The notes under the pieces are model-generated. The model was given only the letters and a program-made list of their open reading frames with translations. It did not search any database and was not told where the DNA came from. A DNA stretch of 64,000 bases from an uncultured Alphaproteobacteria bacterium (lineage in GTDB: Bacteria > Pseudomonadota > Alphaproteobacteria > Rhizobiales > Kaistiaceae). Position 1 is the stretch's first letter. Every line of letters begins with the position of its first letter. The stretch spans positions 2,693 through 66,692 of the forward strand of contig CAVSRC010000006.1 in assembly GCA_963730325.1 (NCBI GenBank), in the 5' to 3' direction. This document shows positions 3,052 to 58,873 of the stretch, in pieces. The position numbers and the translations under genes were made by a program.

Positions 3052-3349
3052 GCTGCGCGCGGGCCATTCGCTGGCGCGCGCTTCTTTCGATTTCCGGCGG
3101 CGAGGCGAATTGGTCATCCTGGGCCGTGAGGCTCGTCTACGGGAGTTTCGGCGCGCGCCCTATGGGCCTTCGGTGGACAAACGTCGCGGGCCGATGTGAC
3201 CTTCCCCACGGGTGGTTGCAATCGAGGCAGGTTTCGAGCGGCAGTGCCCATGTCGGACGAGACCGGGCCGAAGCGAAACTAGACGGAAGGTTGGTCGGGC
3301 GCAACGCTGCACGCCGTGGTCGAGAGCCAGGCTGACCTTGTGGGCCGGA

Positions 3350-4249
3350 TTACGGCTCCGCGATCGAGCGCATCAGGGTCTCCTTGGCGGAGGCCAGATG
3401 CGCCGCACACGCCAGTTGCGCCAGGGACGGTTTCCGGGTCTGCAGAGCGTCGATGTAGACGAGGTGTTCGCGCAGCGCCACCTCATTGCGCTGGCGCTCG
3501 TCACGCTTGTTCCACTGGTAGTGATAGTGGAAGATCAGGGTGATGATCTCGTAGAAGCCTTCGATGAATCTGTTCGGATCTGCAGCGTTTATCAGGCGGT
3601 GAAAACGGCTGTCGATGTCCGAGAAATCATGGAACCGATCGTCGATCTCCGACAGCAGCGCCAAATGTTCCGCGCGAATTGCGTCGAGCTGAACCCAGCG
3701 CGGTGAACTCTCCGGCAGCTTTGCGAAAGCCACGGCCGAGCGCAGTTCAAACATCTCGCGGATCTCGAAAAGCTCCAGGCCGAACGCCGTCGTAAAGCCA
3801 CTGAAGACCCAACCGGCATTTGGGCGCTTCTTGATGAGCCCGAACCGCTGGAAGCGGTTCAGGAACTCGCGAACGCTGCTGGTCGCCACGCCAAACCGCC
3901 GGGCGAGTTCCAGCTCGTTGATGGCCGTTCCCGGATGCGCGTTTCCCCTCAGCATCCAGTCCATGAAGCGCTTTTCAACGTTCGCGGCGGTGGAGACCGT
4001 TTCGGCCTGGGGAAAGCGGCGGATCGATCGTGGTGAAAGGCGAACGAAGCGGTCGCGACCGCTTCCCTTCACGACGCCATTCTCGGACAGCACGTCGAGA
4101 ACCTTGCGTACCGTGGCGCGGCTGACGTTGAGCTGTGCGCCGAGTTTGGCCTCCGACGGAAGCGGCTGTCCGTCCTCGAAATTCGAGATCACGTCGAGGG
4201 CATCGTTGAAGGCGCATTTGAAGACGGTATCGGATTTCATATCGATCAC
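3350..4249 (-). CDS. GntR/FCD family regulator with two tandem winged-HTH modules
   Basis: First wHTH: LPSEAKLGAQLNVSRATVRKVLDVLSENGVVKGSGRDRFV. Second wHTH: INELELARRFGVATSSVREFLNRFQRFGLIKKRPNAGWVF. An all-helical FCD-like C-terminal domain follows. Confidence 0.85.
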   Translation of the reverse strand: MIDMKSDTVFKCAFNDALDVISNFEDGQPLPSEAKLGAQLNVSRATVRKVLDVLSENGVVKGSGRDRFVRLSPRSIRRFPQAETVSTAANVEKRFMDWMLRGNAHPGTAINELELARRFGVATSSVREFLNRFQRFGLIKKRPNAGWVFSGFTTAFGLELFEIREMFELRSAVAFAKLPESSPRWVQLDAIRAEHLALLSEIDDRFHDFSDIDSRFHRLINAADPNRFIEGFYEIITLIFHYHYQWNKRDERQRNEVALREHLVYIDALQTRKPSLAQLACAAHLASAKETLMRSIAEP

Positions 4250-32058: not shown

Positions 32059-32709
32059 ATGCCCGAGATCGACGACGCGCAAAAAGAGGCCGAGCGCCTG
32101 GAGGCGGGACGGCTGTTCTTCGCCAGGCCATGGCAATTCATCGCCGGGGCGCCCAAGGCCGCCGACCTGCCCACCGCCGATGCCGTCGAGGTCGCCTTCG
32201 CCGGCCGGTCGAATGTCGGCAAATCGTCGCTGTTGAACGCCCTCACCGGCAGGAACGCTCTGGCGCGCACCTCCAACACGCCGGGGCGAACGCGCGAGCT
32301 CAACCTGTTCTCGGCGGAGGCGGGCGTGGCCATCGTCGACATGCCCGGCTACGGCTATGCGCGCGCCTCGAAAGCCGACGTGGCGGCGTGGACGCGCACG
32401 GTGTTCGACTATCTGCGCGGGCGGCCGCGGCTGAGGCGCGTCTATGTGCTGGTCGACGCCCGCCACGGCCTCAAGCCCAATGACACGGAGGCGCTCGCCA
32501 CCCTCGACAAGGCGGCGGTCTCCTATCAGATCGTGCTGACCAAGGCGGACAAGGTGAAGGCCGGCGAACTGCCGGAGGTCATCGCGGCGACGGCGGCGAA
32601 GCTTGCCAAGCGCCCGGCGGCGCACCCTGAGGTGCTGGCGACATCGTCGACGACCGGCGCAGGAATCGCCGAACTCAGAGCGGAGATCGCAGCGCTGGCT
32701 TCAAAATGA
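32059..32709 (+). CDS. engB: Ribosome biogenesis GTPase YsxC/EngB
   Basis: G1 [15 protein letters not shown]3 DMPGYG, G4 TKADK. Conserved position after yidC. Confidence 0.93.
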
Positions 32710-32714
32710 GCGCG

Positions 32715-32847
32715 AGGTTCCCGCGCAGGCGGGAACCCAGTAGCCGCCGAAATCCGTTGTTTGAGCCGTGCGGCCGCCAACAGGACCGATGCTCCAAATC
32801 GCCAGTCCTTGCGATTACTGGGTCCCCGCCTGCGCGGGGACCTACAA
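32715..32847 (+). repeat. 133-nt MITE-like palindromic element, copy L
   Basis: 27-nt terminal inverted repeats (ggttcccgcgcaggcgggaacccagta vs the reverse complement of tactgggtccccgcctgcgcggggacc; 25/27 match). Each TIR is itself a 9-bp hairpin. Near-identical copy at 33179-33312. Confidence 0.8.
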
Positions 32848-32848
32848 G

Positions 32849-33148
32849 TCACCGCCACGCTGCAATCATTGGATACAGATCATCCCAGTTGGGATTCTTC
32901 TCTTCGATCAGGCGCACCTTCCAGGCGCGATTCCATTTCTTGATCTGCCGCTCGCGCAAGATCGCCTGCTCGAGATCGTCGTAAGGCTCGAAATAGACGA
33001 GTCGCGTTACGCCGTATTTCTTCGTGAAGCCCGGAGCGGCCTTTGCTCGGTGCTCGAACACGCGCCGGACGAGGTCGTTGGTCGAACCGACATAGAGTGT
33101 GCCGCCGATGCGGCTGGCGAGAATGTAGACGTAGCAATCTCCGGCCAT
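32849..33148 (-). CDS. GIY-YIG (URI domain) nuclease family protein
   Basis: GIY-YIG motif YVYILASRIGGTLYVGSTNDLVRRVFEH..G plus downstream LVYFE and E..IK.W elements. 99 aa. Confidence 0.88.
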   Translation of the reverse strand: MAGDCYVYILASRIGGTLYVGSTNDLVRRVFEHRAKAAPGFTKKYGVTRLVYFEPYDDLEQAILRERQIKKWNRAWKVRLIEEKNPNWDDLYPMIAAWR

Positions 33149-33178
33149 GACCGCAGTATAGTGTCATTCTCACAGCCC

Positions 33179-33312
33179 AGGTTCCCGCGCAGGCGGGAAC
33201 CCAGTAGCCACCGAAGGTCCGTTGTTTGAGCCGTGCGGCCGCCAACAGGACCGATGCTCCAAATCGCCAATCCTTGCGATTACTGGGTCCCCGCCTGCGC
33301 GGGGACCTACAA
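33179..33312 (+). repeat. 133-nt MITE-like palindromic element, copy R
   Basis: Direct repeat of 32715-32847 with 3 substitutions and a 1-nt indel. Same 27-nt TIR structure. Confidence 0.8.
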
Positions 33313-33376
33313 ACCTCGGTTTGTCCCCCTGTCGCAAACCCGGTATAGACCGGCCCTCACCAGACGGACGACGATC

Positions 33377-34282
33377 ATGAGCCAGACCACCGACCAGGAC
33401 ACCGCCGAGGCGATCGCCCGCGCCCGGCTGATCTCGGCGGCGCTGCCCTACATGCTGGCCTATGACGGCAAGGTGGTGGTGGTGAAATATGGCGGCCACG
33501 CCATGGGCGACCCGGACCTTGCCAAGGCGTTTGCCCGCGACATCACGCTGCTCGAGACCTCCGGCGCGCGCCCTGTGGTGGTGCATGGCGGCGGACCCCA
33601 GATCGGCGACATGCTGAAGCGCCTCGACATCCAGTCCGAATTCCGCTCAGGCCTCCGCGTCACCGACAAACGCACCGTCGAGGTGGTCGAGATGGTGCTC
33701 GCCGGCTCGATCAACAAGGAGATCGTGATGGCGATCAATGCCGAGGGAGGCAAGGCGGTCGGCCTCTCCGGCAAGGACGGCAACATGGTGTTCGCCGAAA
33801 AGGTGACGCGCAGCGAGATCGACCCCGATTCCAATATCGAGAAGATCGTCGATCTCGGCTTCGTCGGCGAACCGAAGAAGGTCAACCGCGCGGTGATCGA
33901 CATGGTGCTGTCGGCCGAGCTGATCCCGGTGATCGCGCCGGTGGCGCCGGGGCTGGACGGGGCGACCTATAACGTCAACGCCGATACCTTTGCCGGCGCC
34001 GTCGCCGGCGCGCTCGGCGCCACGCGCCTGCTCTTTCTCACCGACGTGCCCGGCGTGCTCGACAAGAACGGCAAGCTGCTCAAGGAGCTGACCGTGGGCG
34101 ACGTGCGCAAGCTGATCGCCGACGGCACCATCACCGGCGGCATGATCCCCAAGGTCGAGACCTGCATCGAGGCGCTCGGCCGCGGCGTCGAGGGCGTCGT
34201 CATCCTCAACGGCAAGACGCCGCATGCGGTGCTGCTCGAGCTCTATACCGACCACGGCGCCGGCACGCTGATCCTGCCATGA
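33377..34282 (+). CDS. argB: Acetylglutamate kinase
   Basis: [10 protein letters not shown] and [10 protein letters not shown] motifs and AAK fold. ATG at 33377; the upstream part of the track ORF runs through the repeat element. Confidence 0.95.
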
Positions 34283-47518: not shown

Positions 47519-47912
47519 AAATACTTATCCCCGCCCCCTGAACCGCCCCCATATTGGTTGGCATCCCCGCTCGAATGAGGGCGCCGTCCGGAGGCGTTCG
47601 TTCGGTGGAGCGGGGTGCGGCGCCCCCGCGCTTTCGGTTTCGCAGACCGGTGCCCGGGGCGTTCCCGGCGGGACCGTCGGCACTACGACCGGCCGCCCTC
47701 AGGGCTTGAACCCCGCGCCAATGCTGGGCGTAGCGCTCGCCGGGAGACGAAAGAAAATCGCCGCGGCGGGCGCTCGGGTCGAGTGCCCCCAATCTTCGCG
47801 GAGTAACCGCACGGCATTCGCCGGGCGCCCGCCACCCCCTCATGCCTCCGGGCAAGGGGAGCGGTCTTTGAAAGGTCAAAACCCGGTGCGAAACCGCGCG
47901 CGGGAACGAACC
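47515..47912 (+). repeat. Conserved intergenic element, copy A (candidate structured RNA)
   Basis: Blocks nearly identical to the reverse complement of 57439-57925 alternate with diverged blocks that preserve base pairing. No conserved ORF. Confidence 0.7.
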
Positions 47913-47919
47913 ATCTCGT

Positions 47920-47945
47920 GGTCCCCGCGAAGGCGGGGACCCAGT
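47920..47945. repeat. Solo hairpin related to the TIR of the 133-nt element
   Basis: ggtccccgcgaaggcggggacccagt differs from the 33.2-kb TIR only in the loop. Confidence 0.6.
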
Positions 47946-48041
47946 CGTCGCCAATGCTGGCGGCTCAATCCCGGGCGCCGGCGTTTACCGGGCGCCCGGC
48001 CGGCGCCGGGCACCCCAGGAGCCTGGCGCAACGTCGTGCCG

Positions 48042-49392: not shown

Positions 49393-50022
49393 ATGCGAAA
49401 ATTGCTGCCAACCCTTGCCTGTCTCGTCGTCACCGCCTGGGCGGCGGCCGGGCCGGTCCATGCCGCGCCGATTTCCATCATGCAGTTGATGGCACCCACC
49501 GCGCTGCCCGACATGGCGCTCGGGCAACCCACCGCACCGGTGACGATCATCGAATACGCCTCGATGACCTGCCCGCATTGCGGCAATTTCGACAAGACCG
49601 TCTTCGACACGCTGAAGACGGACTATGTCGACACGGGCAAGGTCTATTACGTGTTCCGCGAATATCCGCTCGACGAGCTCGCCTTCGCCGCATCGATGGC
49701 GGCGCGCTGTGCCCCGGCGGACAAGTACTTCCCGATCATCGATACGCTGTTCCGCACGCAGAACGACTGGGCCTTCGTGCAGAATCCGGAGCCGGCGCTG
49801 GTCGCCCAGCTTGCCGCCTTCGGCTTCACGCACGATTCGTTTGCCGCCTGCCTGAAGAAGAGCGACATCGCCGACGGCATCGGCGAGATCGCCAAGCGCG
49901 CGCAGACGGAATTCGGCGTCGAGGGCACGCCGACCTTCTTCATCAACGGGGAGAAGCATGTCGGCGAGATGGACGTCGCCGGGATGAAGGCGATCCTCGA
50001 TCCGCTGCTGGCGAAGAAATAG
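49393..50022 (+). CDS. DsbA-family thiol:disulfide oxidoreductase (CPHC)
   Basis: Signal peptide, then a thioredoxin fold with active site CPHC. Confidence 0.88.
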   Translation: MRKLLPTLACLVVTAWAAAGPVHAAPISIMQLMAPTALPDMALGQPTAPVTIIEYASMTCPHCGNFDKTVFDTLKTDYVDTGKVYYVFREYPLDELAFAASMAARCAPADKYFPIIDTLFRTQNDWAFVQNPEPALVAQLAAFGFTHDSFAACLKKSDIADGIGEIAKRAQTEFGVEGTPTFFINGEKHVGEMDVAGMKAILDPLLAKK

Positions 50023-50166
50023 CAGAAGCCCGCCGCGCACCGGGTTTTCCGCCGGGATCGGGCCTGGGCTTGCGGCCGATTGCGGCGGCGGGCGGTAAAC
50101 TTGCCGCTTGTGGCCGTTGCCGCGAAAGTCGATGATGGTGGCGGGGGTATCCTTCGGGACGTTTCA

Positions 50167-50796
50167 ATGCACAGATTGCTTCCTGCCTTCCTTGGCCTCC
50201 TTGTCGCCGCCTGGGCCGTTGCCGCGCCGGCACGGGCCGAGCCGGTCTCCATCATGAAGCTGATGGCGCCGGGGCCCCTCCCCGAAATGGCCCTCGGCGA
50301 TCCCGCAGCACCGGTGAGCATCGTCGAATATGTTTCGCTGACCTGCTCGCATTGCGCCAATTTCCACGCCGAGACCTTCGACGCGCTGAAGACCAACTAT
50401 ATCGATACCGGCAAGGTCTATTACGCGCTCAGGGAATTTCCGATCGACTCCCTCGCCTTCGGCGCAATCATGATGGCGCGTTGTGCGCCCAAGGACCAGT
50501 TCTTCCCCATCGTCCAGGCGCTGTTTCGCGAGCAGAGGAACTGGGCGTTCGTGGAGAGCCCGGCGGTCGCGCTGCTTGCCCAGCTCGAGCCCTTCGGTTT
50601 CACCGAGGCATCCTTCGAGGCCTGCCTGGGGGACGGCGACCTCGCCAAGAGCATCGGCACCATCGCCCAGAGCGCGCAGAACGCGTTCGGCGTGCACGGC
50701 ACCCCGACCTTCTTCATCAATGGCGAGAAGCACGTCGGCGCGATGGGATTCGCGGAGATGGCGGCGATCCTCGACCCGCTGCTGGCGAAGAATTAG
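50167..50796 (+). CDS. DsbA-family thiol:disulfide oxidoreductase paralogue (CSHC)
   Basis: Signal peptide MHRLLPAFLGLLVAAWAVAAPARA and active site CSHC. Collinear similarity to the preceding gene, so a tandem paralogue. Confidence 0.88.
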   Translation: MHRLLPAFLGLLVAAWAVAAPARAEPVSIMKLMAPGPLPEMALGDPAAPVSIVEYVSLTCSHCANFHAETFDALKTNYIDTGKVYYALREFPIDSLAFGAIMMARCAPKDQFFPIVQALFREQRNWAFVESPAVALLAQLEPFGFTEASFEACLGDGDLAKSIGTIAQSAQNAFGVHGTPTFFINGEKHVGAMGFAEMAAILDPLLAKN

Positions 50797-57438: not shown

Positions 57439-57925
57439 GCTTCCCGTTCCCGCGCGCCGGAAGCACCGGGGTTTGACCTTTCAAAGAGCATCCTCATGGC
57501 CTGGACCATGAGGGGATGGCGGGCGCTCGATGAGCACCAGTCTGTAACTTTGTGGGGCGCTCAGCCGAGCGCCCGCCGCGGTGGTTTTTGCTCCGGTCCC
57601 GCCTGGGCCAGACGAAGGCAAGGCGGCTCCATCCGGACGACCGACCTTTGGACCACCACGGCGCCGATGCCGGTTTCCCGTATCGCACTGGCCGTGGCTG
57701 ACCCTCGCCTGCCTTTAGCGCTGCCCTTTCGGGGCAATGGCGCGCGGCGGAGGACAAGCCTCCGCTGGCGGGCTTCCGAGCCCACGCCGCTCCGCTTGCG
57801 AGGCGGAAACGGCGGACACCGCACCCCGCTCCCATCTCAAGACGCCTCCGGAGACGCCCCTCATTCGAGCGAGGATGCCAACCAATATGGGGGCGGGTGA
57901 GCGAGCGGGGATAGATTTCTTTTCA
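57439..57925 (-). repeat. Conserved intergenic element, copy B (candidate structured RNA), inverted relative to copy A
   Basis: The reverse complement aligns with 47515-47912 from tgaaaa...tatccccgc to ...ctttgaaaggtcaaa..cgcgcgggaacg. The central part is longer. Confidence 0.7.
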
Positions 57926-58022
57926 TGGGCGCTCGCAGAAGACGTGGATGGCCGGGACGAGCCCGGCCATGACGAGAGACTGTGAACGCGGGCGGAGGAG
58001 AGCCGCACCATCACCACAGCCT

Positions 58023-58093
58023 GAGCCCCTCACCCTGTTCCTCCAGGCTCTCTCCGTTCGCCAAGAGGAACAGCCCTCTCCCTGTGGGAGAGG
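58023..58093 (+). repeat. Double-hairpin R element, copy R2
   Basis: gagcccctcaccct + hairpin 1 (ctgttcctc/gaggaacag) + ccctctccc-tgtg-ggagagg. Confidence 0.7.
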
Positions 58094-58169
58094 AAACCCA
58101 CCAGCCGACGCCACAAGCTGCCTCTCCCGACGGGAGAGGAAATTCCGCCACAGCGCCTGCTGCGATTTG

Positions 58170-58236
58170 CCTCTCCCAAAGGGAGAGGGCTTTCGTGCCT
58201 TATGAGCGGAGCGAATTAGGCACAAAGGGTGAGGGG
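58170..58236 (-). repeat. Double-hairpin R element, copy R5 (inverted), abutting the DUF559 start codon
   Basis: The minus strand reads cccctcaccct + hairpin 1 (tttgtgcc/ggcacgaaa) + gccctctccc-tttg-ggagagg. Confidence 0.7.
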
Positions 58237-58587
58237 ATGAAGCCTGTCGGGATTGCCCGCCGTCTGCGCCGCGAGGCGACCGACGCGGAGCGGCGCCTAT
58301 GGTCACGACTGCGCAACCGGCAGGTGGGCGATGTCAAATTTCGCAGGCAGGTGCCCATCGGTCCCTTCATTGCAGATTTTGCCTCCGTCGAGGCGAAGCT
58401 GGTCATCGAAGTCGACGGCAGCCAACATGCCGAAGAAATCGAGGCGGATCGGCTGCGGTCCGATGCGCTCGGCGAGGCGGGTTACCTCGTGCTTCGCTTC
58501 TGGAACAACGACGTGCTCGACAATATCGATGGTGTCGTGAAGGAGATCGAGAGGACACTGGCCGCTCGGCCGGTGGACAATCGCTAA
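58237..58587 (+). CDS. DUF559 (Vsr-like endonuclease fold) protein
   Basis: ARRLRREATDAERRLWSRLRNRQ..KFRRQ..IG.FIADF......LVIEVDG.QH...........D..L...G..VLRFWNNDV is the DUF559 signature. ATG at 58237; the upstream part of the track ORF is translated repeat sequence. Confidence 0.88.
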   Translation: MKPVGIARRLRREATDAERRLWSRLRNRQVGDVKFRRQVPIGPFIADFASVEAKLVIEVDGSQHAEEIEADRLRSDALGEAGYLVLRFWNNDVLDNIDGVVKEIERTLAARPVDNR

Positions 58588-58592
58588 GGTCT

Positions 58593-58663
58593 CAGCCCCT
58601 CACCCTGTTCCTCTAGGCTCGCTTCGTTCGCCAAGAGGAACAGCCCTCTCCCGGCGGGAGAGG
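58593..58663 (+). repeat. Double-hairpin R element, copy R3
   Basis: cagcccctcaccct + hairpin 1 (ctgttcctct/agaggaacag) + ccctctccc-ggcg-ggagagg. Starts 6 nt after the DUF559 stop. Confidence 0.7.
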
Positions 58664-58687
58664 AAACACGTCGAGAGGCGCCGCCCC

Positions 58688-58753
58688 CTAAACCAGCCCC
58701 TCCGGGTAGACGCCGAGGATGCGCACGCGGGTGGAGAAGAACTCCAGCTCCTC
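58688..58753 (-). pseudogene. Duplicated 3' fragment of pheA
   Basis: Encodes EELEFFSTRVRILGVYPEGLV*. It is identical in nucleotide sequence to the real pheA end (58874-58954) apart from one substitution and a 15-nt in-frame gap (ASSFR). Confidence 0.75.
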
Positions 58754-58782
58754 TGGCCGCTCGGCCGGTGGACAATCGCTAA
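58754..58782 (+). pseudogene. Duplicated last 29 nt of the DUF559 gene
   Basis: tggccgctcggccggtggacaatcgctaa is identical to 58559-58587. Confidence 0.75.
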
Positions 58783-58787
58783 GGTCT

Positions 58788-58856
58788 GAGCCCCTCACCC
58801 TTCGCCTCTAGTTCGCTGCGCTCACAAGAGGCGAAGCCCTCTCCCTGTGGGAGAGG
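58788..58856 (+). repeat. Double-hairpin R element, copy R4
   Basis: gagcccctcaccct + hairpin 1 (cttcgcctct/agaggcgaag) + ccctctccc-tgtg-ggagagg. Confidence 0.7.
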
Positions 58857-58873
58857 AGACCCGTCGCCGCCCC

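Follow-up and report, generated by a model that had tools for sequence, protein, structure and literature searches.

Layout of the engB-argB junction

The 64,000-nt stretch of DNA analysed here (the window) comes from an uncultured alphaproteobacterium of the family Kaistiaceae (contig CAVSRC010000006.1, positions 2,693 to 66,692) and carries, in the junction between engB and argB, a small gene for a predicted GIY-YIG nuclease that is enclosed by two nearly identical hairpin-bearing repeats. The locus is very probably (at roughly 85%) a system of the Ssn type, in which an ssn gene is accompanied by matching hairpins of the NTS/SRM kind, here arranged as dimers that resemble REPINs, the paired form of repetitive extragenic palindromic (REP) sequences; SsnA of Neisseria meningitidis was compared by its published description. 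The system itself has already been published (Chenal et al., Nat Commun 2025; PMC11893778), and what is new is another member with local peculiarities.

The boundary genes are engB on the left (yihA/ysxC GTPase; 32059-32709, plus strand; Pfam MMR_HSR1, E = 1.8e-18) and argB, for acetylglutamate kinase, on the right (33377-34282, plus strand; Pfam AA_kinase, E = 7e-50). The first repeat dimer (32715-32847) lies between the engB stop and the ssn stop and consists of two SRM-type hairpins placed head to head around a 73-nt spacer. The original prediction had this left copy begin 6 nt past the engB stop (32709) and the stop codon of the small gene lie 1 nt off the right end of the copy, and both distances are correct. 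The ssn gene follows on the minus strand (32849-33148), and dimer 1 sits between two convergent genes. A -10-like hexamer, TATACT (33155-33160, minus strand), is located 6 nt upstream of the ssn ATG. Dimer 2 (33179-33312), a direct copy of dimer 1 with 97% identity, lies between the start of ssn and a conserved 38-nt block upstream of argB (GTTTGTCCCCCTGTCGCAAACCCGGTATAGACCGGCCC; 33319-33356, plus strand). This block forms the right edge of every insertion found at the junction and is nearly invariant in the window and in five relatives (L008 and L088-L091), whether their junction is occupied or empty; it is probably the argB promoter or operator. An 18-nt stretch, GTGTCATTCTCACAGCCC (33161-33178), separates the ssn leader from dimer 2 and is absent in L008. 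It starts with TGTCAT, the usual tag of canonical hairpins, and may be the remnant of an older hairpin. Rfam, searched with the gathering and with a permissive threshold, returned no family for the locus.

The predicted nuclease and its hairpins

The 99-residue open reading frame matches Pfam GIY-YIG (PF01541, E = 1.2e-15) over residues 5-77 and has no further domain. Its AlphaFold2 model (predicted local distance difference test score, pLDDT, 84.7) is a single compact domain with the GIY-YIG fold, and the top Foldseek matches of the model are the UPF0213 protein BH0048, Slx1 and the N-terminal domain of UvrC. The UPF0213/YhbQ-YazA proteins are alike in size and fold, and BH0048 (PDB 1zg2) is the best match of the model among solved structures, but this match is distant (E = 2.9e-06, 30% identity), hence the window protein belongs to a different subfamily; we know of no reported association of UPF0213/YhbQ-YazA proteins with repeats. 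Three residues, Y8, Y19 and E66, are invariant in an alignment of 17 sequences and are spaced by 11 and 47 residues, exactly as are Y6, Y17 and E64 of SsnA, whose mutation abolishes cleavage (PMC11893778). In a 95-residue homologue (P0062) the same residues fall precisely at positions 6, 17 and 64.

Relatives of the window protein number in the thousands, mostly on short metagenome contigs. An exact look-up among recorded contigs gave no identical protein, and the best relative in species-representative genomes is no more than 78% identical. The ratio of nonsynonymous to synonymous substitution rates (dN/dS) of ssn is 0.16 against the copy in L008, and on this sequence measure the gene is under purifying selection. 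Its G+C content at third codon positions (GC3) is 0.74, compared with 0.87-0.93 in the neighbouring genes. The original prediction had also proposed a leaderless message, from the TATACT that precedes the ATG and the lack of a Shine-Dalgarno sequence. Both observations stand, as the 6 nt between hexamer and start codon contain no purine-rich, Shine-Dalgarno-like stretch; the hexamer recurs at the identical distance in L090, and L008 has TAGACT 10 nt upstream of the ATG. A consensus scan of the locus found no full sigma-70-type promoter. A leaderless or near-leaderless ssn mRNA is thus possible, and plausible from these signals.

The two repeats at 32715-32847 and 33179-33312 had been described as direct copies with terminal inverted repeats, each of which is itself a stem-loop, and this description is borne out in every part. 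The copies are 97.0% identical over 133/134 nt, differing by 3 substitutions and 1 indel, and the inverted ends of each copy are complementary at 93% over 28 nt, or at 88% over 33 nt. Each arm is a 9-bp stem with a 4-nt loop, in one of two forms, GGTTCCCGC-GCAG-GCGGGAACC and GGTCCCCGC-GCAG-GCGGGGACC, and the T/C difference between the arms is balanced by A/G on the partner, leaving both stems perfect. The folding energy of the whole element is -80.2 kcal/mol (z = -7.1 against shuffled versions). Five matches to the hairpin pattern are present in the window (0.00 expected from 100 shuffles), four of them at the locus and the fifth at 47920.

The left arm of dimer 1 (32713-32740, plus strand) reads CGAG-GTTCCCGC-GCAG-GCGGGAAC-CCAG and the right arm (32818-32845, minus strand) GTAG-GTCCCCGC-GCAG-GCGGGGAC-CCAG, while the corresponding arms of dimer 2 are at 33177-33204 (plus strand) and 33283-33310 (minus strand). 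The solitary hairpin that had been noticed at a distance from the locus is confirmed at 47920-47941, and it proves to be part of a half-element (47917-47962, plus strand) that reads CGTG-GTCCCCGC-GAAG-GCGGGGAC-CCAG and continues into about 20 nt of spacer-like sequence; the likeness to an arm plus part of the spacer reaches position 47962 (43 nt at 84%). The window thus holds two full copies of the element and one half copy, so that the original label 'MITE-like', taken to mean many dispersed copies, is weakly supported. Against the NTS consensus, CGTCATTCCCGCGMAVGCGGGAATCYRG, the hairpins match at 24 and 20 of 28 positions (left and right arms of dimer 1), 23 and 20 (dimer 2) and 23 (solo). 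Most mismatches fall in the 4-nt tag that precedes the stem or in the stem's first pair, where the change is compensated; the left arm of dimer 1 has its mismatches in these places.

This arrangement can be set beside what is known of Ssn proteins. SsnA has 94 residues; it binds the NTS (CGTCATTCCCGCGMAVGCGGGAATCYRG) only when this is single-stranded DNA (ssDNA) and only in a single orientation, and its cut falls a few nucleotides upstream; four Ssn homologues have been shown to bind and cut, and duplex DNA was not cut (PMC11893778). These single-domain GIY-YIG nucleases with their hairpin repeats (NTS/SRM) have homologues in many phyla, flanked by related SRM motifs, and in Neisseria the enzyme restricts natural transformation (PMC11893778). 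The window protein shares with them the single GIY-YIG domain of about 95-100 residues and the Tyr/Tyr/Glu spacing, and its gene has hairpins on both sides whose stem, loop and CCAG tail fit the NTS at 20-24 of 28 positions. In contrast to the published systems, the window gene has a complete head-to-head dimer on either side, and one dimer repeats the other in direct orientation. The activity of the window protein is predicted by analogy with the tested members.

Several features weigh against an assignment to Ssn, and most of them concern the bases before the stem. The window hairpins carry CGAG, CCAG, GTAG, GTAG and CGTG in place of the (C/T)GTC tag, and because these four bases deviate from TGTC/CGTC, the published SRM pattern (HGTCWY...), for which the GTC tag is needed, has 0 matches at the locus. 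Cutting in N. meningitidis depends most on the three bases that precede the stem (PMC11893778). Since these bases, which are key in Neisseria, deviate in the window, the tag-less sub-group may follow a different cutting rule, or may bind without cutting. The number of hairpins, five in the 64 kb, is also small. The tag-less form is common to the closest homologues (those of L002, L003, L084-L087 and L090), whose hairpins likewise give no match to the SRM pattern.

The hairpins resemble a second published class of repeats, the CGTC-tagged REPs (Di Nocera, De Gregorio and Rocco, BMC Genomics 2013; PMC3733652), which consist of a stem of 8-9 bp, a loop of 4-5 nt and a CCA tail, are for the most part paired head to head, and are frequent in alpha-proteobacteria including Bradyrhizobium; 'no dedicated transposase' was found for them. 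With a stem of 8-9 bp, a loop of GCAG or GAAG and a tail of CCAG, the window hairpins have the stem, loop and tail of a CGTC REP, and they are likewise intergenic and paired head to head as dimers of two different stems. The CGTC REPs are known in Bradyrhizobium and Rhodopseudomonas, and the tag of the hairpins in 83 related loci (see below) is TGTC or CGTC. Two differences remain. The required 5' CGTC (or TGTC/CCTC) tag is missing from the window copies, and the 2013 paper had no enzyme, whereas a GIY-YIG gene lies between the repeats both here and in Chenal et al. The overall architecture also recalls the REPINs and their REP-associated tyrosine transposases (RAYTs) (Bertels and Rainey 2011, PMC3116915; Nunvar et al. 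2010), with two inverted hairpins around a spacer, a nuclease gene flanked by its own repeats, and arms that are conserved while spacers drift. Unlike the RAYTs, which are HUH tyrosine transposases of the IS200/IS605 type, the window enzyme is a GIY-YIG protein, and the tag is not GTAG as a rule.

Distribution of gene and hairpins among relatives

When species-representative genomes were scanned, 80 loci were found, in Bradyrhizobium, Rhodopseudomonas, Pseudolabrys, Tardiphaga, Bauldia, Rhodomicrobium and other relatives. A strict motif (CCGC, 3-8 nt, GCGG, 2-5 nt, CCAGT) was counted in 83 loci. Within 200 nt of the gene it occurs 158 times in 32.7 kb (4.84 per kb), and elsewhere in the same loci 136 times in 1.25 Mb (0.109 per kb), so that the density near the gene is 44-fold higher; at least one such motif lies near the gene in 71 of the 83 loci. 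The excess is still several-fold if only about 12% of the distant sequence is taken as non-coding, a share that rests on an assumed coding density. Of 87 related loci, 55 have the published SRM pattern within 250 nt of the gene, 23 of them on both sides. Among 238 hairpins in the 83 loci, 221 have TGTC (157) or CGTC (64) as the tag before the stem; the tail is CCAG. The approach was also reversed, with viral contigs scanned for the exact NTS consensus and 120 loci picked by the motif alone. Eight of these encode a homologue of the window protein (49-64% identical over 85-92 residues, E = 1e-26 to 1e-32), which in six cases lies 29-94 nt from the NTS; one locus (L126) has the layout NTS-ssn-NTS. 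The association of the element with small GIY-YIG genes, inferred originally from a single locus, is therefore general and is seen from the side of the gene as well as from that of the motif.

This association bears directly on the idea that gene and repeats are chance neighbours, the hairpins being terminators or ordinary REP-type repeats spread by another enzyme and piling up in non-essential spacers. Such an account would explain the 136 motifs that lie far from ssn, and a terminator would be useful between convergent genes, where dimer 1 is placed. It is hardly credible in view of the 44-fold excess per base beside the gene (several-fold on the 12% assumption), the consistent orientation of the layout, and the persistence of the association when the motif is the starting point, and it is contradicted by the published binding and cutting of four homologues.

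The layout around the gene varies. The form seen most often (14 loci) has a single hairpin per side, both CCAGTA tails turned inward, and a full dimer per side is less common. Similar dimers in direct orientation flank the gene in 10 loci, the window and nine others, and the members of such a pair are 81-100% identical to each other versus 73-83% to other dimers of the same locus. Close homologues of the window protein (81-86% identical) are found in unrelated gene neighbourhoods with the same hairpins alongside. Some genomes have at least two ssn genes, as in the L028/L048 and L030/L061 assemblies with two loci each, and L032 has two copies 4 kb apart.

The engB-argB junction itself is polymorphic. 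Relatives were found by means of EngB, and six genomes, those of the window, L008 and L088-L091, were compared. EngB of the window is 83-90% identical to that of the five relatives and ArgB is 92-95% identical in relatives, and the proportion of synonymous differences (pS) in yidC, engB and argB is similar in all pairs (0.15-0.38), which makes the six genomes roughly equidistant. All inserts are bounded by the engB stop (+5-12 nt) and by the conserved block upstream of argB (GTTTGTCCCCCTGTCGCAAACCCGGTATAGA). A mobile insertion implies relatives with an empty site, and two were found, L088 and L089 (EngB 89-90% identical), with spacers of 64 and 71 nt that hold neither gene nor hairpin. The other three relatives hold a copy of ssn, so the gene is not new at this junction. 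In L008, the junction has one dimer followed by ssn, so that the dimer is downstream of the gene only, and in L091 two dimers precede ssn, both of them downstream. L090 has a pseudogene (3167-3560) with several frameshifts, 92% identical in DNA to the intact gene of L008, no downstream dimer, and an upstream dimer with the arm types of the window. Only the window has ssn with a dimer on both sides. L008 and L091 have a counterpart of dimer 1 in the same place, but its stems differ and its spacer cannot be aligned; L090 has none. The counterpart of dimer 2 is missing in L008 and L091, and in L090 it has the same place, orientation and arm types with a different spacer. The gene and each dimer have thus been gained, lost or converted separately.

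These states decide largely against a composite transposon, the form in which mobility had originally been proposed, with dimer, gene and dimer moving as a unit, the 133-nt elements serving as its ends and the GIY-YIG protein as transposase or cargo. The near-identical direct dimers around the gene here and at nine other loci would suit such a unit, as would the empty sites and the many different neighbourhoods of the homologues, and to this extent the earlier view stands. The parts, however, occur in different combinations at the junction (gene with a downstream dimer in L008, gene with an upstream dimer in L090, gene with two downstream dimers in L091), and therefore constitute neither a fixed composite unit nor an immobile ancient sequence. 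The original prediction had reported no target-site duplication, and comparison with the empty (L088, L089) and partly occupied (L008, L090, L091) sites likewise reveals none. The commonest arrangement in the 83 loci is a single hairpin per side and not two dimers, and the tested Ssn members leave duplex DNA uncut. A composite transposon is, on this evidence, distinctly unlikely.

The same comparison speaks to homing, in which a free-standing endonuclease would make a double-strand break at a duplex hairpin or dimer and its gene would be copied in by repair. The GIY-YIG superfamily does include homing endonucleases, the gene nearly always adjoins a repeat, and the site is empty in some relatives. 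Homing enzymes such as I-TevI and the Seg proteins have the GIY-YIG domain joined to a DNA-binding region, whereas the window protein is a bare catalytic domain of 99 residues with no added DNA-binding domain, and its sole match to a homing-type family, TIGR01453 (group I intron endonuclease), reaches 21 bits, far below the cut-off of 56. No target hairpin is present in the empty sites, and duplex DNA is not cut by the tested Ssn proteins. Homing is accordingly very improbable.

Two further explanations for the variation at the junction were tried and set aside. Replacement of the gene as a cassette was considered, as pS of ssn is 0.60-0.63, or 2-3 times that of the flanking genes (0.18-0.38). 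This is not decisive because the codon bias of ssn is much weaker, as reflected in its GC3, and because the excess appears in every pair, even in L008-L091, where the proteins are 90% identical. A mosaic origin of the L090 allele is weak, with the first 60 nt 80% identical to the window versus 78% to L008 and the rest resembling L008 at 86-97%. Bradyrhizobium and Rhodopseudomonas were rejected as true empty sites, as another small gene stands between their engB and argB and the junction is not comparable. That unannotated open reading frame of about 120 codons is present in L026, L032, L038, L044, L074, L076 and others; judging from its translation, we take it to resemble a DUF423-type membrane protein. 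In those loci ssn lies 3-9 kb to either side of engB-argB, and copies of ssn seem to gather near the cluster.

The window contains other repeats. A non-coding element of about 400-450 nt is present in two copies (47520-47915, plus strand, and 57460-57915, minus strand). The copies agree at their 5' ends (72 nt, 86%) and in 3' parts (43 nt, 79%, and 37 nt, 78%) and diverge in the middle, and Rfam has no match for the element, permissive thresholds included. Directly next to the first copy lies the solo hairpin at 47920. A second repeat family has three copies at 57988-58862, each with a CCCTCTCCC...GGGAGAGG hairpin and a GAGCCCCTCACCCT box, and similar 'cccttctccc...gggagaagg' elements are found in the engB-argB spacers of three Bradyrhizobium loci (L032, L040 and L075). 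A direct repeat of 300 nt at 49602-50675 (74% identity, copies 774 nt apart) probably marks two neighbouring paralogous genes.

Origin and spread of the repeats

By analogy with the four tested homologues, the window protein would recognise its hairpin only in single-stranded DNA and in one orientation, and the cut would fall a few nucleotides 5' of the stem, leaving duplex DNA and RNA intact. The cut sites predicted in this way lie just outside each dimer, on opposite strands. The likely substrate is ssDNA that arises from replication, repair or DNA uptake. The window dimers are alike even in their spacer (97%), whereas dimers at the same position in relatives carry unrelated spacers, and the near-identity of the two window dimers most likely reflects a recent duplication or gene conversion between the flanks. 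As to its role, the Ssn-type locus is likely to be a selfish or domesticated partnership of nuclease and repeat comparable with RAYT and REPIN, although this is the weakest step of the scheme. The arrangement NTS-ssnA-NTS has been likened to an insertion sequence or to a RAYT-REP pair, and domestication has been proposed for it (PMC11893778).

It is possible, if doubtful, that Ssn goes further and replicates its repeats, in the role of RAYT for REPINs, with hairpin-gene-hairpin as the autonomous form and dimers as gene-less derivatives spread via ssDNA. The 14 loci with the gene between inverted hairpins, tails inward, have the geometry of a short dimer, and dimers come or go independently at one locus. 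The same hypothesis was raised by Chenal et al. (PMC11893778), and no transposase is associated with the CGTC REPs according to Di Nocera et al. (PMC3733652). Against it, cutting is the sole activity shown for the family, never the joining of strands. GIY-YIG enzymes are not known to form a covalent intermediate with DNA, and the host would therefore have to supply ligation or repair. Furthermore, no dimer with the window spacer was found elsewhere. A 22-nt probe from the spacer, run against metagenome contigs without the window itself, gave one chance match in an unrelated coding region, a scan that was blind to the source genome and so counts weakly. This hypothesis extends the Ssn assignment and does not exclude it.

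The proposal can be carried one step beyond this, to Ssn as the missing enzyme behind the formation and spread of the CGTC-type dimers, the equivalent of RAYT among GIY-YIG proteins, with the dimer copies as its footprints and the tag-less sub-group as the product of a shifted cutting rule. With the enzyme as spreader, staggered cuts would be made at both outer edges of a dimer, on opposite strands, around the inserted gene, and fill-in of the staggered break would duplicate the whole dimer, giving dimer-gene-dimer without an ordinary short target duplication. Taken as a whole, this proposal is fairly unlikely.

The Ssn family was described only in 2025, and the locus presented here does not settle the question of whether its members spread their repeats. 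If Ssn does spread its own hairpin repeats, this would explain the CGTC REPs, which were without an enzyme in 2013. The engB-argB junction provides a natural test case, as relatives at about the same distance from one another show it empty, filled in part, filled in full or decayed. The sub-group in which the protein is paired with repeats that lack the GTC tag would be useful for mapping how the specificity of Ssn shifts, including for the development of tools that act on single-stranded DNA.

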